DNA of 64,000 nucleotides, from positions 6,014,001-6,078,000 of the forward strand of contig CP158635.1 of assembly GCA_050273025.1 (NCBI GenBank), in the 5' to 3' direction. The position numbers and the translations under genes were made by a program. Under the pieces are notes generated by a model. It ran no database searches, was not told the DNA's origin, and saw only the letters and a program-made list of their open reading frames with translations. Source of the DNA: Cenococcum geophilum (Eukaryota). Numbering within the stretch: position 1 is the stretch's first letter; each line of letters opens with the position of its first letter. Below are positions 1 through 33,384 of the stretch, one piece after another.

Positions 1-3000
1 CCTACTTTTAAAGCTTCCTAGTTTAATATAAAGGCGAAGAAGATCTTAAGGGTGAGATTAATAAGGCTAAATAGCTCCTTATAGATATAGAAATTGAGGA
101 CTACTTTCCCAACTAATACTTTACCGAGTATAGTAAGGTAAATAGCGCATAAACCGTTGCTGTCCTTAATAACTAATCTATGCTCTATTCTGTTATAAGG
201 TTAGATATCTTTAATAAGCTAAAGGAAAGTTCCGCGTTCTTCTTTAACAATAAATACTTAGTAAACGTCTTTTATAGTATTATGCCAGATACTAGAGCCG
301 CAGGAGTATCTATAGTAGGAAAACCTTAAGTCTAAGCTCTTTAGTAGCTTAATAGTTCTATCTAGATTAACTAATTAATGGTAGGCTAATATATAATTCG
401 CTTTGGTAAGGGTACTGTAATTTCTTTTAGTATAATTAAGGTCTAAACCCCGTTAGGATATATTACTTTCTATATTATTCCTATAAATACCCTATTCCTA
501 TTCTGCATCTAAGATATAGATAAATTAGGCGTTAAGCTTAACAACCTTAAAAATATACTTATTTAAGGAGATAATTGGGTGCCCATTATACGCAAGTGGG
601 GTTACCCTTGGTTGCTCCTTTAATAGCCAGAAAGAAGCGTTACTTAGAGTTACTTAACTAAGTTAGAGCTACGTTAACTACATTATCGTTTTAGCTACCT
701 ATCCGTTTACCAACTGCTTAGGGTTCTTTAACAAGTAGGTTATAAAGTTAAGGTTAAAGCAATTAAATATCTTATAAAGTACTGCTATTACTGCCAAATG
801 AACTAGAAGTCCCCTAGCCAATTTAAGTTTACCCTTAAAGATAACTATAACTTTAACTTCTATATTATTATAGATATTATATATCTTAGCGGCAAGCTAG
901 TACTCTAAGTTGTTAACTTCTTAACCTCCTTCTAAGCCGCACGCTTTTTAAAAGATATATTAGCTAGGAACGTATAGGATACTCTTTAATTATACTAGAT
1001 TAATATCTACCTAGGACCCCCTAATTAAATTATTTATAATATAGAAAAGAACTTCTTATCTATAGAGTTTTAATAATAGGTAAAGGCAATAATAATTAAG
1101 GTTAAGGAAGTCCCCGTTAAGGTATATAATAGTATTAGAAAGGTAGAACGATACTATACGCTATTACGCCGCGTATATAAGATTATTTCTTTAGAACTAG
1201 AGGGTGCTAGCGAAGAGCTTATCCTATAGATGGCTGTTAAGGCTATTAATAATACCGCTAGCCTAGATGGGCTCGTACCTATATTACTAGTTTTTGGCGC
1301 CTACCCTTAAATAACTAATAATTCTTTACTATCTCCCTCTATTATATAATAAGCTAAGGCGATTTATAAGGCAATAAAGGAGGTGTAACGTCTCTACGCT
1401 ACGTGCTAGGTTAACGACGCACTAGGAATAAGAAATGGCCTAAATACCTTAACTATGCTCGATCTGCCACTCCAATCTAAGGTACGCGTATAGCGTAAAA
1501 AGGGAGGATAGTTAAGCCCATATAAACTTATTGCAATTAATAGTTAGACTTATACTCTTTAGATGCCCTATAGACCTACTTAATTCCGTTTAACTATTAT
1601 TAAGCCTTACTATAAAGATAACAGTTCCGAGCCTTTATAGGATACCCTAGAAGATACCCTAGGAGATACCCTAGAGGAGAACTATAATTAACGTGCCCTA
1701 GAAGGCAACTATAACCCCAATATAACTGTAGTAGATACGCCGCAACTATGACGCGGTAGAGGTTGCCTAAAGGGATTACGAAACCGCTAATACCTTATTA
1801 ATTTTAAAGAGCAACTTATTACCGCCATTAAGAATAGAGTTAAGCTATTAATGGCCTTTATAACAGCTAAAGAGAAGGCTAACTTTAAGCTCGCAAAACA
1901 GCTTTAAAAGGAAGGCCGTATTATAACTTTAGGAGCTCCTTTCCAAGCATCTAATAAGCAGGAGATTAACGGTCTTATTGCAAAAGGAGTCTTTAAGTTT
2001 AAGAAGTATAACCCTACTAAGTTTAATGGGGTTTATATATTTAGGTTAAGAATAGTTAATAAGATTAAAGGTAAAGCTACCGATACCCTATTTAAGAAGT
2101 TAAGGCTAGTTATTTAAGGTTATAACGATAACGGTAAGGAAGTGATTCTTACGTAATCCCCTATAATTTAATGAGCTAGTTAGTAAGTTATTATTACGCT
2201 AGCTCCCTCCTTAATAAAGAATAAAATGGCGGTTTATTTATAAGATATTACCTAAGCCTATACCTAATTAGAGATACGCCTTTAGCGCTTAATATTGGCA
2301 TACCTTCTAGAGCAAATTCGCCACTAATATCCTAAAGATATAATTATGGTTATGCTTAAGCCACTATATAGAATTATAGAGGTAGGAACTTATTAGTAGG
2401 CTACTTATAGCAAGCACTATAAAGAGAAGCTTTTAATAACTACTTCTATATTTAATCCCTGCTTCCTTATTACAGCTATAGAAACTCTATTTAGAATTGT
2501 TGGCATATAAACGGATAATATAATTATCTTAGGAGACGACTAATTCTTAGCTCTTAAAGAAGATAAGCTAGTAAAGGTAAACCTTATAGCAAAGCTAAAG
2601 GAAAGACTTAATTTAATAACACTATTACTCTTTAATAGATGCATTATTTCCCTAAATAAGGATTCCATTACCCTACGCCAGAAAGGTTAAGGTAAGAAGA
2701 TTAATATTATTAACGTTAATTCTTTAAAGTAAGAATATATAGAGCAACGCGCTTGCGGAACTTATATAGCTTTTATCTATTAACCCGAAGCTTCCTTTAA
2801 TCTTTCTGTTGCCGCCCAACACCAGAAACTAACTAAGGATAATATTTTTAACCTAAATAAGTGTCTTTTCTGGTAAATGAACTATCTTAATTAGGGACTA
2901 CTTTACGTGCCTATTAATCTTCCTACCGCTAAGCTATTTGTGTTTATTAATGGATTGTTTATAAATAATAAAGATTTTAGCTCCTAGCTAGGATATAAGA

Positions 3001-3937
3001 TTATTATAGCGAATAAATCTACCGGAGAGAATGACTTTATAATCTACGGTAATCTTATCTATTAGAGCTTAACTAAAAGTAAATATGTTACTCGAAGCGT
3101 TCTAGTGTTAGAGATATATAGAATAGTTAATAGAGTTAATATAGTAATTATAATTAAAACTACCCTTAAGATAATTATAGATTAACTTAAACTTTCTATT
3201 ATCCCTATAATCGTATACACTAACTTATATTCCCTTTACAAGTGTTTAGTTAAGCTTAGTACTATAAAGGAGAAGCGCCTTATAATTAATATTATAGCAC
3301 TTTAGTAGTCCTATAAGCGTTAAAAACTCTTTAAAATCTAATAGATTAATAGCTAAGATAACCCGGTAGATACGATAATAAAGGCAAACCTAAATAAGGC
3401 ACTAGAGACGTTCGTTAATATAAATACTCTATATATGCGAGTTAAAGGTTAGGTTAAGAGGGAAATTTAAAAAAGTTAAGATCTTATGGAACTTCGACCG
3501 CCAGTTAAAGTTATCTAATTGGTTAGATTCTTACTAAGAGCGCTACGCCTAATTAATTTGGGTGGCGGTGTGGAGTTCTACTAACGCTATTTATTAAGCT
3601 AGCTAATTAGGATTTTCTATCCCTAGGATAGAAAATCGCTATTGGCTTGGCTAAGAGCGGTAAGTGGAACTAATATCTTTACACGAACCCATACATCTAC
3701 CTACGCTACCTCTTCCCCTTTATTTCTTCTTCTTCTTCTCCTTAGCTTTATATCTTTATATAGTAGCAATCTATAAGTATATATAGATAGCAACTATAAA
3801 AGAAGAGTTGCTAGTGTTGGGAATAAGGCAAGCGGTTATCACGTATTATTATATATTACCACGGCACTAGCGTAGTAAGGAACCTTAGGTTCCTTACCTA
3901 CCCCCTAATTCTAAACAATAAGCTTTATTAACTAACA
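1..3937 (+). mobile_element. Ty1/Copia LTR retrotransposon A, RIP-inactivated; 5' part lies outside the window
   Basis: Degraded pol in Copia order: integrase about 700-1330, RT about 1950-2700 (KSRLVIQG-like and LKPLYG-like motifs), RNase H about 2920-3470 (KEKRL.I.I..L and NP.D...K motifs). Purine tract aaaagaagag precedes a 3' LTR running TGTTGG...TAACA at 3815-3937. Confidence 0.9.
3815..3937 (+). repeat. 3' LTR of Copia A
   Basis: TG...CA ends after a polypurine tract. Shares the core cggcactagcgtagtaaggaaccttaggtt with the inverted LTR at about 4818-4984. Confidence 0.8.
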
Positions 3938-4984
3938 TTCACTATGTCTACTTAAGTAGCATTAGTGAGTTACCCTATAACACTAATAGTTACCTTCCAA
4001 AGAATATAGGTTAGTTTTAGGTTTCTATAGTTAACGTATAATCTTAGCTTCCGTCTATACTAGTTCTTCTATACTAGTAAAAACGGCGTAAATATTACTA
4101 GTAATTAGGTTACCGTCCTTAGTAACGTACACCCTATTCCTTTAGAGGGAATCTTAAAAATCCTAAATAATATTAACATTACTAAGTGCCTAGGTGTTGG
4201 CGGTCTATCCTATAAAATCCTCCCTAAAGTATTCCTATAACTATAAATCGGCGTAGTAGCTATCTTAGTAGAATAGAATATAGTATAGGAGAAAGCCGTT
4301 AACTTATTTTGCGGTATAAGTTATTATATTAAAGGTAAATACGTCCCAATCTTTATCGATAAGTTTCGCGTATATAGCTACCCCTAGTAGTAAGGAGTCT
4401 CTCTAGTTGTTTAGAGTAGCTATAGTTATATCTTTAGAGAAAGGGAATATTGGTGGTATAGGGATTGTTGTTTAGTACGCGTTTGTAACATATATTTATA
4501 ATTATAGGGCTTAAGACTAGTTCTAGCCTTAAATTATAAAGACTTATAAAGTGTGTTATTCTGCGTAATAGATATAAGAATCTATAATCTAGGGAAGGCT
4601 TAGGACTAGTTCTAGCCTTTAAATCCTTAGATTTGTAGAAGAGTTCTATTTAAGGTTTAAAACCAGTTCTAACCTTAAAAAACAGCTTCCCTTAATACGA
4701 GTAGCACTAGTATAGTAGCTTATCTCTTCTTAGTAAATACCTAGCTGTTCTATAGTATAACTATAAAGTTAACTACTAATTAGTATTGGTTATATAAGGG
4801 GGATATCACGTAGCTATGGTTCGTAGATAGTATAATAATTATTATTATTTTTATTCCAAGAAAGGGGAAGGGTAAGAAACCTAAGGTTCCTTACTACGCT
4901 AGTGCCGCGGCAACACGTGACGGCAACTTGCCTTATATAACGGCAATTTGCCACATATAGCGGCAATTTGCCCTATTCCTAACA
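3938..4984 (-). mobile_element. 5' part (LTR plus gag) of related Copia element B, interrupted by Copia A
   Basis: Inverted LTR starting TGTTAGG at 4984 (inner boundary approximate, about 4818). The minus strand gives a fungal Copia gag-like EYFREDF.G.T motif near 4200-4250. Confidence 0.7.
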
Positions 4985-5520
4985 CTTACTATAGAAATAT
5001 AAGGATATATAGTACTTAATAGTATACTATAGTTAGAAAATAACGCCACTAGAGCTATTAGGAATAGTAATAGTACTTAAGGAATAAAGAGTATTTTTAT
5101 AAGGTATAGATAAACTATTTATAGTTAAAACGGACTATAAGAACCTTATAGAATTCCTAATAATAAAAGAACTTAATAGAAAATAAGTTAGATAGGTAGA
5201 AATACTTATAGAATACTATTTTAAAATTAAGTATACTAAAGGCACTAAGAATATACAAGCGGATATACTTAGTAGAAAGACAGAACTATAAAAATAATAA
5301 TAAAACTATTAGGAGTAATATTATAAAAAGATAAAGATAGAAAAATTAGGTATAATTATCTAAAAATCGTAATAACTTAAGAGGTATAGATCTATAAGGT
5401 ACTAAAGAGTAATTAAATATAGAGGATTTAGGAGGCGTAGCTTAAGGATTTAAATATAAAATAATAGAAGTACTAAAAGACTACGTATATACTAAGAAGA
5501 TATAAGTTTAAGGTACTTAT
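4985..5520 (+). mobile_element. RIPed Gypsy pol fragment (RNase H region)
   Basis: Degraded ELL.IV..LKE, KTD(H)KNL..F, ELNR.Q.R(W) and KG..N..AD.LSR motifs. Confidence 0.75.
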
Positions 5521-7564: not shown

Positions 7565-7775
7565 TATAACGGCGCTATCGCACGTTACCTGCCAAATTCT
7601 GCCATATTCTACCGACCTGCGATTAGCCCGCCCAAAGCTAGCGCCTTGGCGGCTTACCCTATATATTTGTTTACATCGGTCCTAGAGACCCCTTTTCCTT
7701 CTCTTTAGCTTAGTATCTTTATAATACAGCATTCATTCAAGCTTCGGTTTAGAGGCATTTATTTAAGCCGTGACA
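7565..7775 (+). repeat. 5' LTR of Gypsy A
   Basis: Direct repeat of 26010-26220; starts TA (RIPed TG) and ends CA. Confidence 0.95.
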
Positions 7776-9125
7776 TTATACTAAGCTCTCCCTACCTTGC
7801 CTGGAAAGGCCTTAATAATATCCTACCCCAAAGAAACTTCATCTGCAACGACGTATTAACGCGCTATACTTAGACACCAAAACAACTTTATATTGCCTGG
7901 GAAGGCCTAGATAATATCCCACCTTATAAGCTAGACAGGACTGGACCTATACCCCCAGAATTAAAACTAAAGCGTATAATACCGACGAACCTTAGGAAGC
8001 TAATAATAGCACCTAAAGCAAGCTTATTTAAGAGAGCTGCCTCTACCCAAGAGGAACCTAAGATCCAATTAGGATTAGAAATTGAAGATAATGATGACGT
8101 TATAGACGTACGCGAGCAGATTCGTGCCCTTGCAGCTAGCCAGGAAGCCAATCGTCTTAAAGCGAGAAATATATAAGAGACCCTACAAGAGATCCTAGAA
8201 AGCCTTACAGCCCTATAAAATAGCCTAGCTTTCCCTTTTTAAAGCCCTAGCCGACCTGTTTACTTTACTAAATGTAATATACCAGGGAGTACGGATATAA
8301 TAACAAAGTAATTAAAGTCCATTAAGCTCTTTAACCCCCCACCACTATCTAACGGGATAGACCCTACCTTTAAGAATTAGAGGATTTAAGTATAAGGAAA
8401 GCTCCGCGTTAACTATAACTATTTCCTTTCTAAAGAAGCTAAAATACTTTACCTCTTTGGTTAAACTACTGGGGATACCTAACGGCACCTTTAAGCCAAG
8501 TTTAAGGATGACTTCCCTGTCTAATTTATATCCGTTAATAAGATAATATAGCACCTAGCGGCTATCTATATTAACCCGAATAAAGTACAGGATGCCCGTT
8601 ATAACTATAATCGCCTAATAATAAAACCGAACTAACCCTTTACTAAATTCTAGACTTAATTCCTATACCTTGCAGGAGAAGGCTAGGTCCCCCTTAAGAA
8701 CTACCGATTAGACCTATATAATAAGCTAATAATCCGGCTATAAGAAAAGATTGCTGTAACCTTAGATAACCTACTAACCTATAAAAGACTCGCAGCTTAT
8801 TGCCTATTATTAGACTTAGAACTAAAGTAGATTAACGCCCGCCCTAATTGGTAGAAGCAACTCTATAATAATTAGAACTCGCTAGCTATACCTATAGAAG
8901 CTAGAGTAGAAAAATAAGTTATAACTACTCTTTTACTAAAGGCGGTTATAACTACGCACCGGCGAGCCTCGCCTAACTAGTTATATACTATACTATTAAC
9001 TAGTATTCGCTGCAATACTCTAATTAACCCTACCTCGGCTACGTACTTTAACTATAATAAGTACATTAGGAAAATATTCGCAGGATAAGATTTAAGTAGA
9101 CTTTGGTTTTCGCGTTTCGCGTAAT

Positions 9126-9518
9126 TAACATACAATTTAACCAACTTAACACGTAATTAACTAACTTAATACGCAGTTGACCTACTTAATATATAATTTA
9201 ACTAACTCGATACGCAGTTAACCTACTTAACATGCAATTTAACTAACTTAACACGTAGTTAACCTACTTAACATACAATTTAACTAACTTAACACATAGT
9301 TAACCTACTTAACATATAATTTAACTAACTTAACACGCAGTTAACCTACTTAATATATAATTTAACTAACTTAATATGTAGTTGACCTACTTAATATATA
9401 ATTTAACTAACTTAACACGCAGTTAACCTACTTAATATGCAATTTAACTAACTTAACACGCAGTTAACTTACTTAACATATAATTTAACTAACTCAATAT
9501 GCAGTTAACCTACTTAAC
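9126..9518. repeat. 41-bp tandem array (20+21-bp subunits) in element X1
   Basis: Unit ttaacctacttaacatgcaatttaactaacttaacacgcag with RIP-type variants; counterpart at about 25335-25890. Confidence 0.9.
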
Positions 9519-9648
9519 AACTTTAAAAGCTAACTATATATTTCTTGACGTGCGATTAAGGTAAAGTTATATATTATATATTTAACTATTATATATAATC
9601 TTATACAATCTTATACAATCTCATACAATCTTATAGTCTTATTACTTG

Positions 9649-10001
9649 GAGGCTCTGCACGAGGCTCTACACGAAGCTCTGCGTACAGAGGCTCTGCACG
9701 AAGCTCTGCACGAAGCTCTGCACGAGGGTCTGCGCGAGGGTCTGCGCGAGGGTCTGCGCGAGGGTCTGCGCGAGGGTCTGCGCGAGGGTCTGCGCGAGGG
9801 TCTGCGCGAGGGTCTGCGCGAGGGTCTGCGCGAGGGTCTGCGCGAGGGTCTGCGCGAGGGTCTGCGCGAGGGTCTGCGCGAGGGTCTGCGCGAGGGTCTG
9901 CGCGAGGGTCTGCGCGAGGGTCTGCGCGAGGGTCTGCGCGAGGGTCTGCGCGAGGGTCTGCGCGAAGCTCTGCGTACAGAGGCTCTACACGAAGCTCTGC
10001 A
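9649..10001. repeat. 12-bp tandem array in X1, including 20 perfect GAGGGTCTGCGC units at 9724-9963
   Basis: Directly visible; counterpart at about 24677-25238 is dominated by GAAGCTCTGCAC. Confidence 0.95.
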
Positions 10002-10132
10002 TCGGGTCCCCGCTATATTCCCGATAGCCTCTACACGTGCCTCTACCGTATGTAGCCACCTTATTTTTTACCCTTCCTTCCTTCTTTATATCCTCCCTAC
10101 CTAGGGAGGCACCAGAACGGCAGCCAGCAGAG

Positions 10133-10555
10133 GACCGTTGCTAGAACTAGACGACCGTCGCCAGAACCAGATGACCGTTACCAGAACCAGACGACCATCG
10201 CCAGCCAGACGACCGTCGCCAGAACCAGACGACCGTTGCCAGAGCCAGACGATCGTCGCCAGAACCAGACGACCGTCGCCAGCCAGACGACCGTTACCAG
10301 AACCAGACGACCATTGCCAGAGCCAGACGATCATCGCCAGAACCAGACAACCGTCGCCAGCCAGACGACCGTTACCAGAACCAGACGACCGTCGCCAGAA
10401 CCAGACGACCGTCGCCAGCCAGACGACCGTTACCAGAACCAGACAACCGTCGCCAGAACCAGACGACCGTTACCAGAACTAGACGACCGTTGCCAGAGCC
10501 AGACGACCGTCGCCAGAACCAGACAACCGTCGCCAGAGCCAGACGACAACGACTA
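10133..10555. repeat. 20/21-bp tandem array (CCAGAACCAGACGACCGTCG-like) in X1
   Basis: Directly visible; counterpart at about 24185-24560. Confidence 0.9.
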
Positions 10556-10597
10556 GCCAGCCAACACTATAAACGATTCGATCAATCGATCAAATTA

Positions 10598-10877
10598 AGG
10601 TAGCACAGACAGGTAGGCACAAACAGGTAGATGCTGACGGGTAGGTAAATGTAGACAGGTAGGTAGATACAGACAGGTAAGCAGATATAGATAGGTAGGT
10701 AGATGCAGATAGGTAAGTAAATGCAGATAGGCAAGCAAATATAGATAGGTAGGTAGATGCTAACGGGTAAGTAGATATAGATAGGTAGGCAAATATAGAC
10801 AGGTAAATATAGATAGGTAGGCGATGCAAATAGGTAGGCGATGCAGGTAGGTAGGTAAGTCAATAGGTAGATAGGTA
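10598..10877. repeat. About 18-20-bp purine-rich tandem array (AGGTAGGCAGATGCAGAT-like) in X1
   Basis: Directly visible; longer counterpart at about 23750-24140. Confidence 0.85.
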
Positions 10878-13800
10878 AAAGAGAACCATTGCTATATTAT
10901 ATTAAATTATCTAAAATAATAATATTTATTTTGCTAGCCTTATAAATAGCTTTAAAATAGCTTTTATTTATTTAAAATATATTATTAGTATAAAAGAGGT
11001 AAATATAATTATAGTTGCCAAATGCGCAGATTGCTGGTAGGTTGCGCGTAGGTTACGCGTAGGTTGCGCGCAGGCTGCGCGTAGGCTGCGTGTTAAAAAA
11101 ACACGACATAGGCTAGTCGGTCAAGTTGCCAAATGCCCTCAACTGCGCGCCAATTGCGTTAACCACCAACCATTGAGGCTATTGAAAGGGTACCATATTT
11201 TGCCGATATAGGGTTACTTTGCCTCGTCCTGCCCAGAGCTAAAAGATATAGGCGATATTAAGGAGATAGAGGAAGGAGAAATGTTAGATAAGTTAGGAAA
11301 AGAGAAACCCTAGGGAAAGACTCCCCTTTAGGGTACCCTATCGATCTTAAAGAGATTAATCTTAGTTAGTTAATAGATGGAAAGCATTTTATATTTCTAT
11401 ATATAGTATCTTAAAATAGATATAGAGTTAATATAACCGCCCTTATTAACACTAGAGTAAATAGCTTTGCCTTTATAAATATTACCTATATAAATAATAT
11501 TACCAAGTTTCTAAATATAGAAGCCATCTAACTAGAGAAGCCTATTTAGGTAAAAGGCTATAACGGCTAAGCTGGTTGGCCTATTACCTACGTCTTAAAG
11601 TTACATATTGCTCTTAACGGACGACGCCAATACAGTATCCCCTTTTACATCCTAGACCTAGGGTCTTACGATATAATCCTTAGACAAAAATAGATATCCT
11701 ATTTTAATATCTAGTTAAATATACAATAAAGACGGTTTATCTAGCCGGAGGATAGACTAAAGTTGCCCTCCTTTATTAGGGAGATCCGAACTAACCGTAA
11801 GACACTAGCCGTAAGGGCTAACCCTATTTACTAGTAGGATATCTGGGCCCGTGACCTAGCCTTTACCTAAGAAGACGCCCGCCACGAAGCTAGAAAGAAC
11901 TCTATACTGATAAAGATACTCTCCTAAAGCGCTACGTTTAAAGAGGACTTTACGTACGGAAGCGGGACAAATAGTAACATAGACGACGTCTAAATTGCAC
12001 GGATTTAACTGGTATGGAAAAGAACATATTAATAGGATATAAGGGATAACCTCTAAAAGATATAATAGGAGCTAAAAGGGGTAATAATAACGCCAGTACC
12101 CCGGAAGTCCCTAAAGTCATATACACCCCTATTGTTAGGCAACCCCCCTACCGTAGATATCGCCGCAATTAGCGCTATAGCATTCCACTTTAATATATAC
12201 CGGAAGAACAATAAGGTCTTTACAACGAGCCTATATAAGATTAACCAAATTATTAATAATAGAGAGGAAAGGCTAGCTAAGGAAACTAACAAGGAACTAG
12301 TTAAATGCCTTCTTTTTACTATTTATACAAACTACAAGGATGCATTCTTAAAGGCGGCCTTAGATAAGTTACCCCCCTACCAAACATACGATTATAAGAT
12401 TCAATTAGAAGCCAATAACTCGCTAGGCTATAGCCCCCTCTACTATTAATTAACGGATAAGCTAAAAGTAATAAAGTAGTACTTAATTGATAACCTGGAT
12501 AAGGGGTTTATTAAGCCAAGTTAAGCCCCTTTTACTTCCCCTATCCTGTTCGTAAAAAAGCCTAATAGAGGCCTTCATTTTTATATTGACTATTAGAAGC
12601 TAAACGCTATTACTTAAAAGGACCAGTATCCTATTCCTTTAATTAATAAGACCCTTATACGTCTAAGCTAGGTAAAGATCTTTACTAAACTTAATATCCG
12701 TTAAGCTTTTTACTAAATTAGGATAAACCCTATATTTAAAGATTTAATAACATTCCGTACCCGTTATAGTTCCTATAAATATAAAGTTCTTCCTTTTAGA
12801 CTAATAAACGGACTAGCTACGTACTAAAGGTATATAAATAATATTCTTTTTAATTACCTTAACGAATTCTGCACGGTATACCTAAACGACATTCTTATAT
12901 ACTCGGATAATAAACTTAAGCATTAAGTTCATATTAAGAAGGTCCTGGAAAAACTACGGAACACGGGCTTATAAGTTGATATTAAGAAATACAAGTTTGG
13001 GGTAAAACGTATAAAATACCTTAGGTTTATCGTAACTATAGAAGGAATTAAGGTCAACCCTAAGAAGGTAGAGGTAATCTATAACTAGAAGCCCCCTTAT
13101 ATAGTAAAAGGAATCTAGTCCTTCTTTAGCTTTTATAACTTCTACTACTGGTTTATCTATAACTACGGAATTGCGGTAAAACCTCTTATATAACTAACTA
13201 GGAAGGATACGCCTTTTATCTTTAATAATAGCTATATAGAAGCCTTTAAAGAGATAAAGGATTAGCTTATCTTTTCCCTAATCCTTTATCACTATAACCC
13301 GGACCTTAAATTAATGCTAGAAATGGACGCCTCTAATAGGGTCGTAGCGGGAATCCTATTATAGTTATATCTAGACGGCGAATGGTACCCTATAGCTTTC
13401 TTCTTAAAGATAATAGACCCGGCTAAGTGTAACTATAAAGTATATAATAAAGAAATGCTAGCTATTATTTAATTACTTTTCTAATAGCGCGTAGAGCTCG
13501 AAGGTATATATTCCTAAATTAAGATATATATAGATTATAAAGCCCTAAAGTACTTTATAACTACAAAGCAGCTTACTAAATAATAGGCCTAATGGGCCGA
13601 AATACTCTCCTAATTCTTCTTTACAATTATATATTGTTCTAGTAAGTAAAACTTTAAGGCTAATGCCCTAACCTAAAGAGAATAAGATGTAGGCCCCTAG
13701 GATAAGCTAAAGACCTAATATTAGACGCATGCCCTTCTTTATCTAGAACAGCTTGACCCACAGATCATTAAGGAGCTAGACTCTTAGTAAAACGAGCTAG

Positions 13801-14280
13801 CACTAATAAAGGAGTCCTTAGATAAGCTAATAGGGCTAATTAACCGCCTCCTAACTATAAACTACACGGCTGACGCCTTAAGGGCCCTCCGTAAATAAGC
13901 TGTAAAAGAAGACCCTAATTTTAAGACGGAGGAAGGATTGCTCCTATACTAGGAGCGGCTTATAGTCCCTAACGTTAACAATTTATAAACTAAACTAATC
14001 CGCGAAGCTTATTACTAAGTCTCTACAGCACACCCTAGCAAGAATAAAACCTATAAAATCATTAACTGCCGCTACTACTGGCCGAAAATAGTTGCGAATA
14101 TTAATCGATATATACGGAACTGTGAAGACTATTAGAGAGCTATAATCCCACGGGATAAGACCCTAAGACTACTTAAGCCACTCCTAATACTAGAGCGCCC
14201 TTAGCAGTATATCTTTATAAACTTCCACAAACTACCTAGGGACTGTAATGGATACGATATGGTTATAGTTATAGTTAACC

Positions 14281-17200
14281 TGTAAGAGGCCAGCCTAACT
14301 AGAACATATAATTATCTAATTAACAGTGTCACCAGTAAGTAGAAGGTAAGTTAAAGGTAAATAGAAGGTAAGTTAAAGGTAGAATGAGTTTTACATATTA
14401 AAGGACAAATGCTTCTAACTACTTCTATTTAGAGACTAATCGCTAGTTCTTCTCTAGAGGAGAACTAGCTCCCTATATAATCTTTCTAAGACGCTAGCAA
14501 AACCCTTTACCCCTTATCTGTCTAACTATGTCTTTTGGGACGTAGATAGAATATAGGTAAGACCTCCTTTTAGAATATAGATGAGACCTCCTTCTAGAAT
14601 ATAGATAAGACCTTCTTTTGTCTTATCTAATATATACCTTCTAGGGAATTCCATTATAATTACCTCCCCTTTAAGGGTCTTAGTCCTCTAAGACTTCGCC
14701 TCTACTAAGCTTTTATAAAGTTCCGGCTAAAACCACTAAGGAAATTCTTAGTGGAAAGGTACTCTATAATACGGCTTATAGCTAGTTCTTTACTAGCGTA
14801 GAACCTTACTTTATTCTTAGTTCCTCTGCTTTTTTCCTACTATAGTTCCCTATAATGCCTTTATAATAGAACTAAAATAATAATAATAAAAATTAGATGG
14901 GATTCACCTTTCTTATTATAAGAGTTTGTTATAAGTTGATTTGGAGGTTATCCTATATAACGCGTCTATAAGCCACTATCCCTATTTACCTAAAATGGAT
15001 TCTAATAATAATATCTTTATTTTAATTTTCTTCCAGTTTATAAGCTATTGCCTCTTACACGTCTTTTCATCAATAACACCATTCGTCTCGTCTTTCAGCA
15101 AACTATTTCCTCTATATCTCCGCTTTTAGCTTTTATATCTTTAGCTATTCTTTTATAGCTGCTTTATTCTCTTCTTATAACATATCTATAAGTAATAGGA
15201 TCCCTACCTTATCTTTTTATAATAATGCTAACTTCTTAGAGTATTCTCTTATAATGGCTCGTGGTCCCCAGACCAGCGGTAGTGTTATTAATCTTCCGGT
15301 AACGCCTTAGACAGCGTCTGTTGCTCCTGCGGCAGTTTCCCTAAAATGCTGTCATCGCTACATTTATGCTCTTACGTAAGATCCTTCCTACGTTTATAAA
15401 ATACCTCGCTCCGGCGAAAACAAATCCAAGTGCTCTTATTATTGTAGTAGGAGAAAGACCTACGTCCTAGTATTTCCTATTCCGTCCTATTCTAAATTTC
15501 GCTAATTATACTAGATTTCCGCTATCTATGCGCATAAAACTTATAGGCTCTAACACGCTATCTAAGATTTCCGCTAATATCCTAATAGTAATAGGCGGAG
15601 ACAGAAGGTGTCTTCCCTCGCTCGCAGACTCTTTAATTTTATAAGGGTTTCCACTACTATAGAGACGCAACGTTTTCGGATATATAGTATCTAGGAGCAC
15701 ATATGCAAACAGCTCGTCCTTATTAATAATAACATTTATACTCTTACGCAGACTACTTTAGCTAGGTGAGTTTCTCTAGTGACTTACTTAGGAACTGTGC
15801 TAACTCCTTTAGCTAATATCTCTTTAATCCCTACTTAGACGCCAATTTAGAACCTAGGGATACTAAGGATAGCGATAAAGGTTAAGATAAACGTTCTCCT
15901 CGCCAGTCTCCCGCCTATGCTGGTCCTTCCAGTACCTATTGTTCTAAGAAGAATATTAGTGAAAGTGCTAATGCTTTTGGGGATGGAGGAGCTAATAATA
16001 CCGTTAATAATGACGTTAAGATAGAAGAGGAGGCTCCTATTGCTGCTGCTGGTATTTAAGTTATTACCTAGCTCTTTTCTTCTTATAGAATAGCTTTATA
16101 TAGTGCCTCTCGGGTGCCTTTAGGATGCCCTATTATTGGGAATTAACTTTATACTTTAGGGATGCCTTTATTTTAAGCTTTGGTGATAATTTATATAAAC
16201 GTAGTATACTACTATAATCCCCATATATAATAAACGGGTAGTGTTCCTATAGGTGCCTTATAATTCTTTAAAATTTCTAATTCTTTATAGGCTGTCCTTT
16301 TGCTCCTCTTCGTACTATTAACTCTACTATATATCTCCGGTGCCAGGCCAAATACTCTTCTTTTATCCCTAGGGGATCTTACTAAATCCCTAAGGCCACT
16401 TCTTATAGTGCTATTACTCCTTCTTATATAGCGTCTTCTTTAAATAGTATCCCTAGTGGTTCTCCTATAAATTTCTATAGGCTTCCTCTTATAAGATTCT
16501 AGGATCCCTATTATAATAGCGAAACGTTTCCGTTCTTAATGCCTATACTTAATCCTATGGTTTTAATTTACGGGGTTTTCCCTATTACTTTACCTGTAGC
16601 ATATCCAGAACCATTTTTAAGTCTTTACCTTTAGTTCTTAGGAAGGTTTTAATTACGGTGTTATATCCCGGCTAAAGGTACTTCTTAGGTTCCTAACTAT
16701 TATGTGCCTAGAAGTATCCTTCTTAATAAACTAAAAATTCGCGCTTCTTCTGGCGCCATCTTTAGTCTAAAATGTCTTCTATATTCTATTCTAGTTCCCT
16801 ATTAATTTCGCTAGGTAGGGGCGGTTCCGCACCATCTCTTTTTTAGTATAGCTTTAGTAAAGAAACATAAAATATAGGATATATTAGATAAGATTTCAGT
16901 AATTCTAATTCATAGGCTTGGTTTCCTTTAGTTTTTTTAACTATCTTAAAGGGTCTGAGTTACCGGTGATCTAGCTTCTTCTTAATGCGTTTTATTCAGA
17001 TATTTTTTATAAATAATAAGACTTCGTCTCCTATCTTAAATTCTTTCGGCATATATTTTTTGTTATAGTACCTTTTTTGCACAGCCTAGGCGTCTAGCAA
17101 GTGCTTTTTAAGTTCCTCTCTGCGAATTCTTATTTGCTTAATTCTTTTGAACGCCGCTAATGCCTCTCTTTTAGGAACGATGTCCTTAACGTTCTAGGGG

Positions 17201-20200
17201 TTATTTACTTTTACCCCAAATAATGCTTTATAAGGGGTCATTTTTATACTACTATAGATGCTTATGTTATACACGTGCTGCGCTAAAGCTAACTATAATG
17301 TCTAATTATCCTGTTAATAATTAATATAGTAGCGGAGGTAGTGTTCCAATAACGCATTTAGATGCTCTATTTGCCCGTCTATTTACAGGTAAAAGGTAGT
17401 GCTTATCCTTTGCCGTATTTTCAATAAGAGATAGAATAAAGACCAAAATGCACTATTAAATACGGTGCCTCTATTAGACACAATTCCCCTTAGCGTACTA
17501 AACGAGAGCCACCGTTCCAAAAATAGGTCTGCCAGTTCTGCTACTATAATCGTTGTTATAACAGCAAAGTATCCTAAAAACTTTGTATACCTGTTGACGA
17601 TTACTAGAATAGCGTCAGCAACCTCTTTAGTTCTTATCTTGGTAGGGGGTAAGCCTGTAATAAAATCCATTATTAATTCTAATATGGGTCCCTGCGGAAT
17701 AGGAAGCACTAATAACTCGCCGTATAGGCAATGCCTGGATATCTATATCCTTTGGCACGTATTATACCTCAATATATAGTCCTTAACCTCTTCAGACATT
17801 CCATCCTAAAAGTATTTCCTTTAAACGGCCTTAAGGGTTCTATTGGCACCGTAGTGACCCCTAAGAGGGTCATTATAGAAGACCTTTAGAATTTTATCTT
17901 AAATTGCTTGGTCCTTCAAGATATATACAGCACCCTTAAAGCGTAATAGACCCTTTTAGTCTTGCTACTATAGCTTTTTAGTGACTCTAGCTAAGTTGGT
18001 CTCCACTATATCTTTCCACCTCTCCCTAGAGGCGAAGGCGTCCCTTTATTAAGCTTAAAGAAGAAGATCCGGAAAGGTTTCGTGCAGATTACTTACTTCC
18101 ATTTCGCCTGCCGCTATTATAAACTTAAGGTGTAGTACGAGACGTTTTAAACTATTAGTGCTAGCAGATTCTCCTACCGTTATATAGTATACTATACTAC
18201 AGATAGGTATCTCGCCTATCCCCTTTAGATCCGAGAACTCGCAGCTAATGCGCCGTCAAGTTAAAGGTGCCGCGATACCTCTAGCACATCCTATAGAATT
18301 CTCGCTAATTCTAGGGTACGCCAACTTTATAACATCTGCTTAGTCTATAACCTAGTCTATAACTATATCCTACGGCTCTATAATTATATCGCTTTACAGC
18401 TGCATCGCTAGGACCTCTACCCTACCGCGAAATTCTATAGTTCTAAGGAAAGAGTCTTCTTTCTTCCTAAGCAAATTTTATAATGTGGGGATTATTTCCC
18501 CTGTGCTGTCTTAGATCCTCCCTATCTTATAATCCGGACGTCTTAATAACCCATTAGCAGGATTTATCTTTCCTAGGCGGTACGTAATCTTAAAATCATA
18601 CTGCGATAGTGCCTTTGCCTACCTAGCTTGTCGACCGCTTAACACCTTTATAGTCATAAAGTATTCTAGGTTGTTATAGTCTATAAGGACTTTAATGGGA
18701 TAATTGCTTCCTATACAATAATGTCGCCAGTACTTTATTACTATAATTATCGCGAGCAGCTCCTAGTTATACGTTATGTAACGCTACTCTATAAGGGTCA
18801 TTTTCCTTAACTAAAACGCCATAAAATGCTATTTTCCGTCTTTTAATTGAGATATAATTGCCCCTAGGGTAAAGCCAGATATATCCGTTTTAAGGTATAT
18901 ATATAGCTCCTAGCAGAAGTATATTAGGATAGGCGCCGATATAAACAAATCCTTTAACTGGTCTATAGCCTACTTAGCAGCTTCCCTAAATATAAAGGGT
19001 CCTAACTTCCTGCTATTCTTAAATCCTTTTAGTAGATCAGTAATTAGGAGTATTACTTATAAGTAGTAAACAATAAACGTTTAGTAGAAGTTCGCCGTAC
19101 CTAAGAAAACCTATACTTCTCTAAATGTCATAGGGTAGGGCTATTCCCTAATGGCGTCCACCCGACTTTTCTCTATTGACACTCCGTTAACGCTAACAAT
19201 AAAGCCTAAAAAATTAATGCTAGTAGTATAGAACGTGCACTTTTTTAGGTTTATATAGAGCTTATATTCCCATAGTCTTTCTAGTACTATTTACACGTGG
19301 TGTATATATACTTCGTAGTTATTAGAGTAGACTATAATATCATTAAGGTAGACTATATATATTATGTCTAATAGGCCCAACAATGCCTTATTAATATAGG
19401 CCTGAAATATTACTGGTACGTTAGTAAGCCTAAATGGCATTACTAGGTACTTAAAGTGGCGTACTATATTTAGAACGCCGTTTTCTATTTATCGCCAGCT
19501 TTAATCCGGATTTAATGGTATACATCTTTTAGATCCAATTTTATAAATATCTTTATGCCCAACAGCCTGTTAATAAGCTCCCCTATTAAGGGTAACGGGT
19601 AGCAATTCTTTATAGTAATCTTATTTAGCGCCCGATAGTTAATATAGAGGCAAAGGGTCCCGTTCTTCTTAGGTATAAATATAATCGGTGCCCCTACCAG
19701 GCTTATAAAGGGCCAAATCCATTCTCTTTAAAGATTGTCCACTATATATTAACATAGTACCGCTAGCTCATTTTCTAACAGGTTATACAGCGGTCTAAAA
19801 AGAGGTTATTTATTCCCTATATCTATCTTATACTTAACCAATATGGGGTTAAGTAAGGTTTGTGCAGCCTCTTTACTAGAAATATCCTCTAAGTCTATAT
19901 ATTCCTATAGAATCTCTAGTTCCTTAACTGCGCATAGCCGGACATCCAAAAATAAATATCCTGTGTCCCCGTTCTTGGTGTCAAAAGTAGCATATATAGT
20001 ATATACCCACCCTTCTTCTTACACATAGTTTAAGAAAGTCTCTTAATCTTCAACTATAATGCGCGGTTAAGACTTCCGATGTTAATATAAGGCTAAAGGC
20101 CAATCAATATCCGGATTAACTTGGTAAAGCTATAGGTATCCTAAAATAAGGTTATACCCCTTAATTTCTACAGCATAGAAGCATATCTCCTGCGTGTCCC

Positions 20201-22066
20201 ATAGACTATTACAGTCCTAGCTGGCCACAGAAAAAGCTTATTCCCTATAGTATAGAATCTAGTAGCCTCTAATGCTTTAAACAGTGCGCACCTACAAGCC
20301 GCTAAGGTCTAAATCTAATTCTTTTACTAGTAATTAAGAAATAAACCCTATACTCACGCCGCTGTCTATAAGGCAGTCTCGCGTTACCTATTTATTATTA
20401 ACTTAAATAGAGACAGGAATAACTATACGGCAGTTTACTCCCTCCTTCTCTTACTGGCCTAGTATAAGGGAGTAAAGATCTACTAGGCTATCTCTTTTTC
20501 TAATTAGGCTAACTCTTGCTTCTTTTACCGGCAGAAGCGGCTTATATGGCCCTTCTTACCGCAGTTATAACAGGTGCGTGTCTTTTAGTTCCCCTCCTAC
20601 GGATTAGGTCTCTACCCATTGTTATTTTAAGGTTAACTAGCGTTACTTTAGGGCTATAAGGCCTGCTTACGTTGTCCTTTTATAGAGCGGTTAGGTCAGA
20701 ATCTACCCCTATTATTAAAGCTAGGTCTAGTCTTACGCTCTTTATTATTGGCGTCTCGTTCCTTTCACTTACCTAGATAATCTCTTTTAGCACTTTTAAT
20801 CCGAGTAGCTTTAGAGATAAGCTTTTCTCAAAAGGTAGGAATTTCGCCCTTTTCTTATATAGCCTGTTAAATCTTAGGTTATAGCTTAGCAAGTAGCTGG
20901 TGAAGTTATATAGCGTTATCCTATAGATCTAAGTAGGGTATATTGTCTTCTAGTTTTTTTAAGTAGTTTATAAACTAGACCACAGTCTAACTATCCCGCT
21001 ATTTGGCGTTATGGTATTACTAGTTATAGTCTATCCTTTAATTAGTAGGGTCTTAAACCTAATTAACTAACTAGGTCCTAAGTTCGCTAAATTTAAGGGG
21101 TATAGTAAGTTTCTTCTCATAGCGTGTCTATGAACTCTTAACGGTGCCACGTAGGAAGGTAGAAGTAATTAGTGTCTAATTATACTCGTTAGAGTAATAT
21201 TTCAAATCTAGCTAAAACTTAGTTTCGTATTATTGGATAAAATAATTGTAGTTCTAAAGACTATTACTATAGTACTTATTAGGTTCCTTTATGCGGAATT
21301 TAGGTTTTTCTAACGTTACAGTATAGTGTGGCGTTACCCCTTTAAGTCCGCTTTGTGTCTAGGGTATCTATACTTCCCCTAATTATCCTTACAATTATTT
21401 TTAGTAGTCTTAATATACTTATCTTAATCGTATCTCTAACTCCTTTGTTTTTTATAGGGTCTTATATAGCAACCGCTCCAATAACTCCCTAGCGGTAATC
21501 GTTTTTAAAGGTCTTATAAGGTTAGACAGACTAGCCGTAGCTTCTTCATAGAAAGAGGGAATGCGCTCCTCTAGGGAGACTCTTTAAGCCTCTTGCGGTA
21601 AGGGCGTTGCTTTATAGGGTATAGGAGTATAATTCGTTATCGTTAATTAATAGCCGTACGTTCCTAACGGATTGTAAGTAATTAGAATTATAAGAGGCTA
21701 GCTTAACCGGAATGTATAATTATCTAATTAACAGTGTTACCGGTAAGTAGAAGGTAAGTTAAAGGTAAATAGAAGGTAAGTTAAAGGTAGAATAAGTTTT
21801 ATATATTAAAGGACAAATGCTTCTAACCACTTTTATTTAGAGACTAATTGCTAGTTTTTCTCTAGAGGAGAACTAGCTCCCTATATAATCTTTCTAAGAC
21901 GCCAGTAAAACCCTTTACCCCTTATCTATCTAACCGTGTCTTCTAGGACGTAGATAGAATATAGGTAAGACCTCCTTCTAGAATATAGATGAGACCTCCT
22001 TCTGGAACATAGATAAGACCTCCTTCTATCTCATCTAATATGTACCTTCTGGGGAATTCCGTTATA
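14281..22066 (-). mobile_element. Ty3/Gypsy chromovirus B, full length, RIPed, inserted in the integrase of Gypsy A
   Basis: 378-bp LTRs at 14281-14658 and 21689-22066, TSD TAACC, PPT complement attacctccccttt at 14659. Minus-strand gag with CCHC near 20550, RT, RNase H, integrase (MDFITGLP ORF 17383-17709) and chromodomain at about 16640-16800. Confidence 0.95.
15254..16059 (+). pseudogene. RIPed antisense accessory gene inside Gypsy B: three exons, Cys6 zinc-cluster-like N-terminus, acidic C-terminus
   Basis: ATG at 15254. Introns at 15470-15514 (GTATTT..GCTAAT..TAG) and 15766-15812 (GTGAGT..GCTAAC..TAG). Stops in exons 1-2 are TAA/TAG. Reverting RIP-type changes gives C-x2-C-x11-C-x11-C-x2-C-x6-C. 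Confidence 0.65.
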
Positions 22067-23418
22067 TAACCGCTTTAATAAACGCCCGTTTTTAATTCCC
22101 TATTATAAGAATATTAATGCTAAAGAGGCAGCCTGGCTATATATCTATTACGTCTACTAAATCTATAGACTACTAGATACTATTATATCTAATTATAGGC
22201 TATAGTTTATATCGGCCTTCTAGAATAAGTTTATCCAAATCTTAGGCATTAAGCTAAAGCTTTTTACGGCTTATTACCCCTAAATAGACGGTTAGATAGA
22301 GATTGTAAATTAGTACCTAGACTAGAGGCTTAGGCCCTTTATTAACTATTTTTAGGACAACTGGTCTAAACTACTACCCTTAATAGACTACGCGTAAGCA
22401 ACCTTACCCTATAACTCTATAGGGTTTACCCCAATTTAGCTAGAAATGGGATACTTACCCTATATAAGCTTTAACTAAAAAAGGCTAAAAGAACCCTAGA
22501 CTGTATAAGAGAAGCTATCCTATGCTAAGGCCTAATAGTACGCTAAACGATTAGAGGAGGCCTAGATGGTAGCCCGTAAGAACCTAAAAAAAGCTTAAAG
22601 GTTAATAGAACAGTAGGCAAATAAACACCGTTAAGAGCCCGATTTTACCCTTAGCGATATAGTCTAGGTTATAATAAGGAATTAGAAAACTAAACAACCT
22701 AGCTATAAGCTAGACTACTAAATAGTAGGACTATATAAGGTTTTTAAGAAAATAGGCAACTCGTATAAGATAAAGCTTCTAGATTTAATTAGGGTTTACC
22801 CTATCTTTTTACTAGATAAGTTACGGAAAGCTATAAATAACCTATTGCCTAGATAAAAGAATAAGCCTCTCCTACTAGTTTAAGTAAACGGTAATAGTAA
22901 ATGGGAGGTTAACAAAATATTGGCCTATAAGATAGTATAGGGAACGCTAAAATACTATATCTAATAGAAGGGCTACAATCCTAACCTAACCTAGTATCCT
23001 ACGTGGAACTTTATAGGCTGCCCTTAAAAGCTTAAAGAATTTTATAACTAATACCCTAATATGCCTAGGCCCCCAAAGTACCTAGATAAATAGATAAAAT
23101 GCTAGTATAATAAAGATAATAAGTTACTAGAAGAATATAAGGATAAAAACGCCCTAAAGCCCTAATATAGCTATCTGCCAAATTCTGCCATATTCTGCCG
23201 TTTTCTACCAGTACTATAAAATATTAGATATCCAGGAACTTTAACCGCCAGTTAAAGTTGTCTAATTAGTTAGATCCGTGCCAAGACTTTTAACGGCTAC
23301 TCTTTCTAGCCTAGTGCTTCCACTTAGCCTACAATCGCCCTTTATACTTAGTCTGGACGTACTCTTATCCCCTTTATCTCCTTATCTTATATTTTATAAT
23401 CCTATATTTATAAGCCTA

Positions 23419-25950
23419 TATCGGCAAAATATAGTACCCTATCAATGGCCTTAATAGTTAGTAGTTAACGCAATTGGCGCGCAGTTAAGGGCATTTAGCA
23501 ACTCGACCGACTAGCCTATATTATATTTTTTTAACACGCAGCCTGCGCGCAGTCTACGCGCAACCTGCGCGTAACCTACGCGAAACCTGCTAGCAATCTA
23601 CGCATTTGGCAACCACAATTATATTTACCTCTTTTATACTAATAGCATATTTTAAATAAATAAAAGCTACTTTAAGGCTATTTATAAGGCTAGCAAAATA
23701 AATATTATTTTAGATAATTTAATATAATATAGCAATGGTTCTCTTCTACCTATCTACCTATTAACTTACCTACCTACCTATCTACCTACCTACCTATATC
23801 GCCTACCTGTCTACATTACCTACCTATCTGCATCGCCTACCTATCTGCATTGCCTACCTGTCTACATCGCCTACCTATCTGCATCGCCTACCTGTTTACA
23901 TTGCCTACCTATCTATATCGCCTACCTATCTGCATTGCCTACCTGTCTGCATCGCCTACCTATCTGCATCGCCTACCTATTTGCATCTGCCTACCTATCT
24001 ATATCTGCCTACCCATCAGCATTTACTTACCTGTCTGCATCTGCTTGCCTGTCTGCATCTGATTACCAGTCTGCATCTGCCTACCTGTTAGCATCTGCCT
24101 ACCCGTCAGCATCTCCCTATTTGTGCCTACCTGTCTGTGCTGCCTTGATTCGATCGATCGATTGAATCGTTTATAGTGTTCGCTGGCTAGTCGTTGTCGT
24201 CTGGCTCTGGCGACGGTCGTCTGGTTCTGGCGACGGTCGTCTAGTTCTGGTAACGGTCGTCTGGTTCTGGCGACGGTCGTCTAGTTCTGGTAACGGTCGT
24301 CTGGTTCTGGCGACGGTCGTCTAGCTCTGGCGACGGTCGTCTGGCGACGGTCGTGTGGTTCTGGTAACGGTCGTCTGGCGACGGCGACGGTCGTCTGGTT
24401 CTGGTAACGGTCGTCTAGTTCTAGCGATGGTCGTCTGGTTCTGGCGACGGTCGTCTCATTCTGGCGACGGTCGTCTGGTTCTAGTAACGGTGTTCTAGTT
24501 CTGGCGACGGCGACGGTCGTCTGGTTCTGGTAACGGTCGTCTAGTTCTGGCGACGGTCCTCTGCTAGCTGCCGTTCTGGTGCCTCCCTAGGTAGGGAGGA
24601 TGTAAGGAAGGATGGATGGATAAAAAAAATAAGGTGGCTACATAGGAGAGGCTATCGGAAATATAGCGGGGACCCGATGCAGAGCTTCGTGTAGAGCCTC
24701 TGTACGCAGAGCTTCGCGCAGAGCCTCGTGCAGAGCTTCGTGCAGAGCCTCGTGCAGAGCCTCCGTACGCAGAGCTTCGCGCAGAGCCTCTGTACGTAGA
24801 GCTTCGGGCAGAGCCTCTGTACGCAGAGCTTCGTGCAGAGCCTCTGTACGCAGAGCTTCGTGTAGAGCCTCGTGTAGAGCCTTATGCAAAGCTTCGTGTA
24901 GAGCTTCGTGCAGAACTTCGTGCAGAGCTTCGTGCAGAGCTTCGTGCAGAGCTTCGTGCAGAGCTTCGTGCAGAGCTTCGTGCAGAGCTTCGTGCAGAGC
25001 TTCGTGCAGAGCTTCGTGCAGAGCCTCTGTACGCAGAGCTTCGTGTAGAGCCTCGTGTAGAGCCTTATGCAAAGCTTCGTGTAGAGCTTCGTGCAGAACT
25101 TCGTGCAGAGCTTCGTGCAGAGCTTCGTGCAGAGCTTCGTGCAGAGCTTCGTGCAGAGCTTCGTGCAGAGCTTCGTGCAGAGCCTCTGTACGCAGAGCTT
25201 CGTGTAGAGCTTCGTGTAGAGCCTTGTGCAGAGCCTCTAAGTAATAAAACTGTGTAAAAATTTATTTGCGTAATTAGCATATAACTTTACCTTAATTGCA
25301 TGTTAAGGAATATACAGTTAGCTTTTAAAGTTGTTAAGTAGGTTAACTGCGTGTTATTTAACTTTTAAATATATTAAGTAGGTTAACTACGTATTAAGTT
25401 AGTTAAATTATATATTAAGTAGGTTAACTACGTGTTAAGTTAGTTAAATTACATATTAAGTAGGTTAACTGCGTATTAAGTTAGTTAAATTGCATATTAA
25501 GTAGGTTAACTGCATATTAAGTTAATTAAATTATATATTAAGTAGGTTAACTGCGTATTAAGTTAGTTAAATTATATGTTAAGTAGGTTAACTGCGTATT
25601 AAGTTAGTTAAATTATATATTAAGTAGGTTAACTGCATGTTAAGTTAGTTAAATTATATATTAAGTAGGTTAACTGCGTATTAAGTTAATTAAATTATAT
25701 ATTAAGTAGGTTAACTACGTGTTAAGTTAGTTAAATTGCATATTAAGTAGGTTAACTGCGTGTTAAGTTAGTTAAATTGCATGTTAAGTAGGTTAACTGC
25801 GTATTAAGTTAGTTAAATTGCGTGTTAAGTTAGTTAATTACGTGTTAAGTTAGTTAATTGCGTGTTAAGTTAGTTAAATTATATGTTAATTACGCGAAAC
25901 GCGAACACCAAAGTCAACTTAAATCTCATCCTGCGAATATTTTCCCGATG
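23419..25950 (-). mobile_element. Non-autonomous TIR element X, copy 2 (inverted), in the 3' UTR of Gypsy A
   Basis: TA flanks at 23417-18 and 25951-52; ends tatcggcaaaatat / atattttcccgatg; same five arrays in reverse order with different copy numbers. Confidence 0.88.
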
Positions 25951-26009
25951 TAGTACTACCCTATTTCTAACTAAGCCTAAAGGCAGGCTTTCTTTAAAGA
26001 GGGGGGTAA

Positions 26010-26220
26010 TATAACGGCGCTATCGCACATTACCTGCCAAATTCTGCTATATTCTGCCGACCTGTAATTAGCCCGCCCAAAGCTAGCGCCTTGGCGGCTC
26101 ACCCTATATATTTATTTACATCGGTCCTAGCGACCCCTTTTCCTTCTCTTTAGCTTAGTATCTTCGTAATATAGTATTTATTCAAGCTTCGGTTTAGAGG
26201 CATTTATTTAAGCCATAACA
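26010..26220 (+). repeat. 3' LTR of Gypsy A
   Basis: Direct repeat of 7565-7775, preceded by the PPT and followed by TSD CCTTT. Confidence 0.95.
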
Positions 26221-33290: not shown

Positions 33291-33384
33291 TGCATTGGAC
33301 AAGGTTCGAACTTGCGCGGGTCTCCCCAACAGAGATTGTGCATAAACTTAAATCTGCCGCCTTGGACCACTCGGCCACCAATGC
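33291..33384 (-). tRNA. tRNA-Leu(TAA) with a short intron
   Basis: Acceptor stem GCATTGG/CCAATGC, D arm tggccgagtggtccaaggc, anticodon TAA followed by an intron, long variable arm, T loop GTTCGAACC, downstream T7 terminator. Confidence 0.92.

Follow-up and report, generated by a model that had tools for sequence, protein, structure and literature searches.

Host elements in the window

The window, by which we mean the whole stretch of 64,000 nucleotides analyzed here, sits in a 178-Mb genome in which the repeats show the excess of TpA that RIP leaves behind. Two LTR retrotransposons, both on the plus strand, are at the center of this study. Copia A is represented by a pol frame (positions 3 to 3479) in the order protease, integrase, RT, and RNase H, which is broken by many RIP stops, and by a 3' LTR with approximate boundaries at 3815 and 3988; its 5' LTR was located in another locus, L091. 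Pfam gave no RT match for this heavily mutated frame, and the class of Copia A rests on the domain order together with the marks of GalEa Copia elements, that is, CHSeq1 after the 5' LTR (near position 8070 of L091), a length of ∼6.1 kb, and RIP-altered motifs resembling KSRLVI, QTDD, and CQPEA. An LTR of a Copia A subfamily lies in reverse orientation at 4793 to 4986.

Gypsy A begins with a 5' LTR (7565 to 7775), continues with RT, RNase H, and the integrase zinc finger (11208 to 14280; RVT_1, 1.4e-18) and with a RIP-broken region holding the integrase end, SH3, and chromodomain (22061 to 23165), and closes with a purine run and a 3' LTR (26010 to 26220). The copy is split by three nested insertions. 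The stretches 9062 to 11216 and 23418 to 25951, both inside this Gypsy A, are inverted copies of one satellite-rich element with arrays of 12, 17, 20, and 41 nt, and a further nested element with 376-bp direct repeats, which lacks the module described below, occupies 14283 to 22066. A tRNA gene is found on the minus strand at 33291 to 33384.

A block shared by Copia A and Gypsy A

Between the pol end and the 3' LTR, on the coding strand of each element, we found copies of one sequence module, at 3488 to 3539 in the 3' UTR of Copia A and at 23235 to 23286 in that of Gypsy A. The two copies are identical at 44 of 52 positions and differ by seven transitions and one transversion; self-BLAST of the window returns the pair at an E value of 7e-9, the 60-nt flanks agree at 22/60 and 17/60 positions, and the window contains no third copy at 30 or more of the 52 positions. 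This bears out an earlier note on this DNA, made from the sequence alone, which had described a 52-nt match with mostly transitional differences and unrelated flanks, placed in sense just after pol in both elements and holding two adjacent inverted repeats (stems 1 and 2 below). The motif is indeed common to the two elements, but its extent of 52 nt does not stand, in that the shared block spans ∼65 to 80 nt between most family pairs and starts ∼10 nt earlier in the Copia A copy. Discounting the 2.5-kb insertion at 23418 to 25951, which parts the Gypsy A module from its LTR, copies in Copia A and Gypsy A lie 190 to 280 nt before the 3' LTR.

The module has three parts. In Copia A, a RIP-mutated palindrome of 23 bp, with 11-bp arms around one center base and a CCG-N-CGG core, occupies 3490 to 3512; a CCAAT box follows on the minus strand at 3518 to 3522, the core CCG beginning 13 nt after the box; and a conserved tail, TTGCCAAGA in little-mutated copies, lies on the plus strand at 3531 to 3539. 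We take this tail to resemble a PacC site, as a candidate only. The Gypsy A copy has its palindrome at 23237 to 23259 and a RIP-mutated CCAAT box at 23265 to 23269. Little-mutated copies elsewhere (for example, L079 and L300) give the plan in full, with the palindrome followed by GTCTGATTGG (CCAATCAGAC on the opposite strand) and then by the tail; a CACGTG E-box and a GCCAAG tail are often close by. The 11-bp arms are perfect in most families, and the center base is C or G within several of them (14:9 in Gypsy B, 10:8 in Gypsy C2); two Copia E LTR variants, L105 and L107, have a two-base center. The two bases preceding the CCAAT remain purines despite subfamily changes in stem 2. In little-mutated copies of Copia E, families F and G, Gypsy A, A2/A3, and B, and Copia A4, the box reads CCAATCA, in line with the consensus CCAATVR that the available part of PMC7144946 gives for the CCAAT-binding complex (CBC).

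A second palindrome (3611 to 3637) lies between two CCAAT-like boxes (3603 to 3645) and is common to Gypsy B, C1, and C2 in either orientation. Between subfamilies it has undergone a genuine two-sided G/C swap, and together with the C/G center of the first palindrome this shows that the dyads are symmetrized or flipped, whether by selection or by template switching.

Copy number and host families

A genome search with a 34-nt RIP-tolerant pattern recovered 2,938 copies (1,480 and 1,458 on the two strands), compared to none for the reversed pattern used as the control. Because the patterns used to gather most copies fix the letters of the core, part of its invariance is built in. We could place the module in about ten families, namely, two Copia, six Gypsy, a gag-only LTR element (family G), and a 17-kb helicase-bearing DNA transposon (family F). 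Sharing between Copia and Gypsy, as noted earlier, is therefore real, but it is not limited to one element of each. The first 30 matches on contig 1 were distributed over Gypsy A (6), Gypsy D (6), Gypsy C2 (5), Gypsy A2 (5), Copia A (3), Copia A4 (2), DNA transposon F (2), and Gypsy B (1), and Gypsy C1, Copia E, and family G emerged from further searches, the last being the sole divergent context in a permissive scan of the collected loci. These hosts are distant from each other: the pol proteins of the Gypsy lineages are 33 to 52% identical (A2 and A3 form one lineage at 78%), figures that RIP lowers, and BLASTP of Copia A against Copia E gave no match. None of the 46 little-mutated places examined was a host-gene copy.

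Metagenomes contributed at least 133 matching stretches in five data sets, whose contexts, among the matches listed, are RIP-mutated members of the same or sister families. The flanks of one of them, L253, are those of loci L070 and L093 from the genome itself, so these data are no evidence for the module in distant species. Searches of viral contigs and prokaryotic genomes gave no matches, and public runs containing the Copia E LTR come from 13 studies, covering two organisms as well as root, soil, or fungal metagenomes.

Placement and orientation

In 27 of the 30 sampled genomic copies, the module stands in the 3' UTR, in sense and 3' of pol, with its CCAAT pointing back into pol. This placement is not invariable, given four families in which the module is reversed and may lie inside an LTR, a 5' leader, or a DNA transposon. 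In Gypsy B (L128), it is reversed within the 3' UTR. In Copia E (L122 and L123), it is reversed in both 180-bp LTRs, where the CCAAT precedes a TATATAG by 55 nt. Family G, an LTR element of ∼5 to 6 kb with a gag-like frame (L348 to L369 and L373 to L376) in which no RT was found, carries it reversed in the 5' leader, with 53 or 63 nt between the module and the gag ATG; the frame differs between subfamilies, which makes the module noncoding, and the leader contains a second CCAAT box besides the divergent module. One lone family G copy, L370 (G000:C4:6266409), has a rearranged dyad core, and a Helitron-like PIF1 helicase element lies beside another (L369:5100-8500).

The fourth family, F, is a multicopy DNA transposon with terminal inverted repeats and a DUF6589 plus DEAD/Helicase_C frame (L346/L164/L165, G000:C1:485582-502043, and L337 to L345), for which we read 8-bp target duplications in three of four copies. 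It carries the module twice, in both cases reversed and ∼260 nt before one of two paralogous passenger ORFs that have no Pfam match; the 40 candidates scored yielded 41 module matches among those listed. When retrotransposon proteins served as probes, F showed similarity to none of them, and a role in reverse transcription or packaging therefore cannot explain its copies. F may be Academ- or Kolobok-like: AcademH has a DEAD/Helicase_C helicase, which F matches weakly (E value of 3e-4), but its target duplications are 9 to 10 bp compared to the 8 bp of F, and KolobokH has the same helicase as AcademH. The left end of F contains several TTGCCAAG repeats resembling the module tail.

For the 3' UTR families, the least mutated copies examined have no TATA box behind the reversed-CCAAT side, and the families examined have no antisense ORF of at least 40 amino acids within 500 nt. 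Two candidate regularities were discarded. A TATA-like run 56 nt behind the Gypsy B copy is absent from a sister subfamily, and a constant distance of 260 to 270 nt between module and ATG fails in family G, whose ATG at +272 is replaced by GTG in a little-mutated copy and whose reading frame opens at +53 or +63.

Exchange between elements

The 3' UTRs are mosaics, from which it follows that exchange between families has happened. The closest 3' UTR partner of Copia A is Gypsy C1, with which it shares 222 nt at 78% identity, and Copia A4 (L139 and L176) carries ∼100 nt of the Gypsy A2 (L063) 3' UTR, including a T/G run like a Gypsy polypurine tract; as judged from the sequences, the latter is a recent Gypsy-to-Copia exchange. 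The proposal of the earlier note that a cis module had passed between superfamilies is thus supported. Of 24 copies of Gypsy D, 22 have, at ∼55 nt from the box, an inverted purine run together with an LTR-like start; a complete inverted LTR was considered for this element and rejected, as only the purine run and the start are supported. We propose that pieces of LTRs were captured into 3' UTRs and then swapped by template switching or ectopic recombination. Capture would be mostly inverted because an LTR in sense would presumably bring its own termination signals.

Folding and covariation

The inverted repeats had been interpreted as a cis-acting RNA with two stems closed by a GGA/TCC bracket. 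We assessed covariation in 309 of 322 instances, a sample biased to conserved cores from which 13 self-matches or indel copies were dropped, and found that two-sided stem changes are solely C-G to T-A. Association between partner sites (odds ratios of 7 to 21) is no stronger than that between nonpartner mutable sites (odds ratios of up to 48), which indicates that the stem changes reflect RIP load; RIP strikes both arms of a palindrome alike and so mimics covariation, a trap for analyses of this kind. Changes in stem 2 break its inner pair in 19 and its outer pair in 8 of the 309 instances. Family G, found without a pattern through a weak match and a loose end of RNA, has neither the GGA/TCC bracket nor a 3' arm for stem 2 in any of its 19 alignable copies (of 20), and stem 1 contains two mismatches in those copies that are little mutated, but the family retains the CCAAT box, the dyad core, and the spacing between them.

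Compared to shuffled sequences, little-mutated copies of seven families fold at z scores of −1.0 to −3.6, those of an eighth at −1.3 and −0.1, and those of family G at +0.4 to −1.0. The two strands are predicted to fold about equally well; of the stems, only stem 1 is found repeatedly, and few copies form the two-stem junction. Searches of Rfam returned one tRNA only for the window at the gathering threshold and, for six little-mutated loci at E values of up to 1, a single chance-level match (E value of 0.83), and so no RNA family corresponding to the module. Taken together, the structured-RNA reading of the module is not supported.

A putative regulatory module and its rivals

On the evidence of motif content and placement, we consider it probable that the module is a DNA-level promoter or enhancer module of ∼65 to 80 bp, recognized by the CCAAT-binding complex and a dyad-binding factor and spread by capture and recombination. 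The placements that decide for this reading are the exceptions found in Gypsy B, Copia E, and families G and F. The box would be bound by the fungal CCAAT-binding complex, and the CCG-N-CGG dyad, of the kind used by Zn2Cys6-type dimers, would lie directly beyond its footprint; the 13-nt distance between CCAAT and dyad is close to the edge of CBC-covered DNA as placed by the available text of PMC7144946. Where CCAAT faces a TATA box or a start codon, as in the Copia E LTR, the family G leader, and F, the module would serve as an upstream element, whereas the 3' UTR copies might act as enhancers that work in either orientation close to the 3' LTR, or else as antisense promoters. The core shows no transversion between families whose pol proteins have diverged to the degree given above, and the flanks carry many. 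We also advance, more tentatively, the possibility that a portable cassette read by host factors was adopted by Copia, Gypsy, nonautonomous LTR, and DNA transposons alike, so that one host signal would govern much of the mobile genome, with the 3' UTR copies in use as distal enhancers or antisense promoters.

Several observations count against these ideas. The prevalence of 3' UTR copies whose CCAAT points back into pol, with neither a TATA box nor an antisense ORF behind, argues against a promoter; an enhancer 6 kb away from the 5' LTR would be oddly placed for a fungus; CCAAT boxes and CGG dyads are short motifs; and the G/C swap shows that the second palindrome is kept symmetrical, as would also be expected of a hairpin. 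As to expression, three RNA libraries, among the rows listed, have exact contigs over the unique flank beside a solo LTR (L115, 1173 to 1448). Two of these contigs end at 1448, and the DNA run continues to 1486. With depths of 4 to 9, contigs only, possible carry-over of DNA, and runs chosen by this very stretch, we regard this as at most a weak hint.

For the reversed 3' UTR copies, the main rival is neutral carriage. The module would then have arisen as a promoter piece, and the 3' UTR copies, both window copies included, would be neutral remains of captured LTRs that recent recombination has dispersed. The inverted relic of an LTR start in Gypsy D, the mosaic borders, and the lack of a TATA box or ORF behind reversed copies are all consistent with this account. 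We nevertheless hold it to be rather unlikely, given that the core is kept in the six divergent Gypsy lineages and in both F units while the flanks gain indels and transversions. Relics would be expected to have ragged cores, a point that the bias of the search pattern weakens. Alternatively, the palindrome could be a pairing site for dimerization of genomic RNA or for template switching by RT, independent of orientation and itself driving exchange. The perfect arms, the two-sided change in the second palindrome, and the variable center base, which is expected if the dyad flips, speak for such a site, but two copies are present in DNA transposon F, the palindrome has decayed in family G whereas the nonpalindromic CCAAT side is preserved, and the crossover borders fall outside the core, making this explanation quite unlikely.

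An RNA structure serving export, packaging, termination, or self-cleavage draws on the predominance of sense copies 3' of pol and on folding below shuffles in seven families; set against folding that is about equal on both strands and weak in family G, covariation that does not exceed RIP, the empty Rfam searches, and placements that are reversed or outside retrotransposons, we find it improbable. Finally, ∼2,900 copies on both strands might suggest a tiny independent mobile element, MITE- or SINE-like, with a preference for transposon 3' ends, as had also been suggested. Yet every copy read in context (30 of 30, and further sets of 30 and 16) occupies a fixed place in a host family, the borders vary between family pairs, and inspection by eye found no target duplication of its own, so that this last alternative appears highly improbable.

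To our knowledge, it is usual to regard a regulatory module as the property of a single transposon family. The one described here occurs in two retrotransposon superfamilies and in both classes of transposons, and traces of the exchanges are preserved in the 3' UTRs. Should it prove functional, it would offer a small, testable handle on the joint switching-on of unrelated elements in a repeat-bloated fungal genome, and neighboring genes could be affected by the ∼2,900 dispersed copies.

Relation to known systems

Promoters with CCAAT and TATA boxes in U3 are known from the LTRs of retroviruses and retrotransposons. The Copia E LTR, with its CCAAT ∼55 nt before the TATA box, resembles them, whereas most module copies lie outside LTRs and are reversed. 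The composite CBC:HapX site described in the accessible part of PMC7144946, CSAAT-N12-RWT, likewise pairs a CCAAT-type box with a neighboring signature; in the module, the triplet after N12 is ACC rather than the HapX signature, and the neighbor is a CGG dyad. The seven-base core equals the PrtT motif of Aspergillus niger, CCGHCGG, as reported in the available portions of PMC8419926 and PMC10781853, and the center variants C, G, and A all fit it on one strand or the other. According to the same portions, the motif was deduced by MEME only and PrtT is restricted to Aspergillus and Penicillium, and we take the identity of the motifs as a lead to a putative Zn2Cys6-type binder, not as an identification.

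Among transposon signals, the GalEa CHS is, like the module, a palindromic noncoding signal common to families of one species (PMC5445492, as far as its available text goes). It stands directly after the 5' LTR, where it replaces the primer site, and reads CTGATCAGT or CTAATTAGT, whereas the module is a different sequence located elsewhere. In a literature search covering mostly open-access papers, we found no account of a fungal module of this kind crossing transposon classes, and the module belongs to no described family. Its closest counterparts are the LTR CCAAT-TATA promoters and, going by the accessible text of PMC2829016, the RM boxes of Sireviruses, a genus of plant Copia elements. Both RM boxes and the module are short palindromes with CGG/CCG cores, both occur in LTRs upstream of TATA and after pol, and both are conserved between divergent elements and have been proposed to be regulatory. 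The RM boxes number 8 to 32 copies per element, are confined to one Copia genus, and have CGG..CCG polarity, and the module shares neither this high copy number per element, nor the CGG..CCG core, nor a Sirevirus host. Instead, it stands as one copy per site with a CCG-N-CGG core, is tied to a CCAAT box, and is found in fungal Copia, Gypsy, and DNA transposons.
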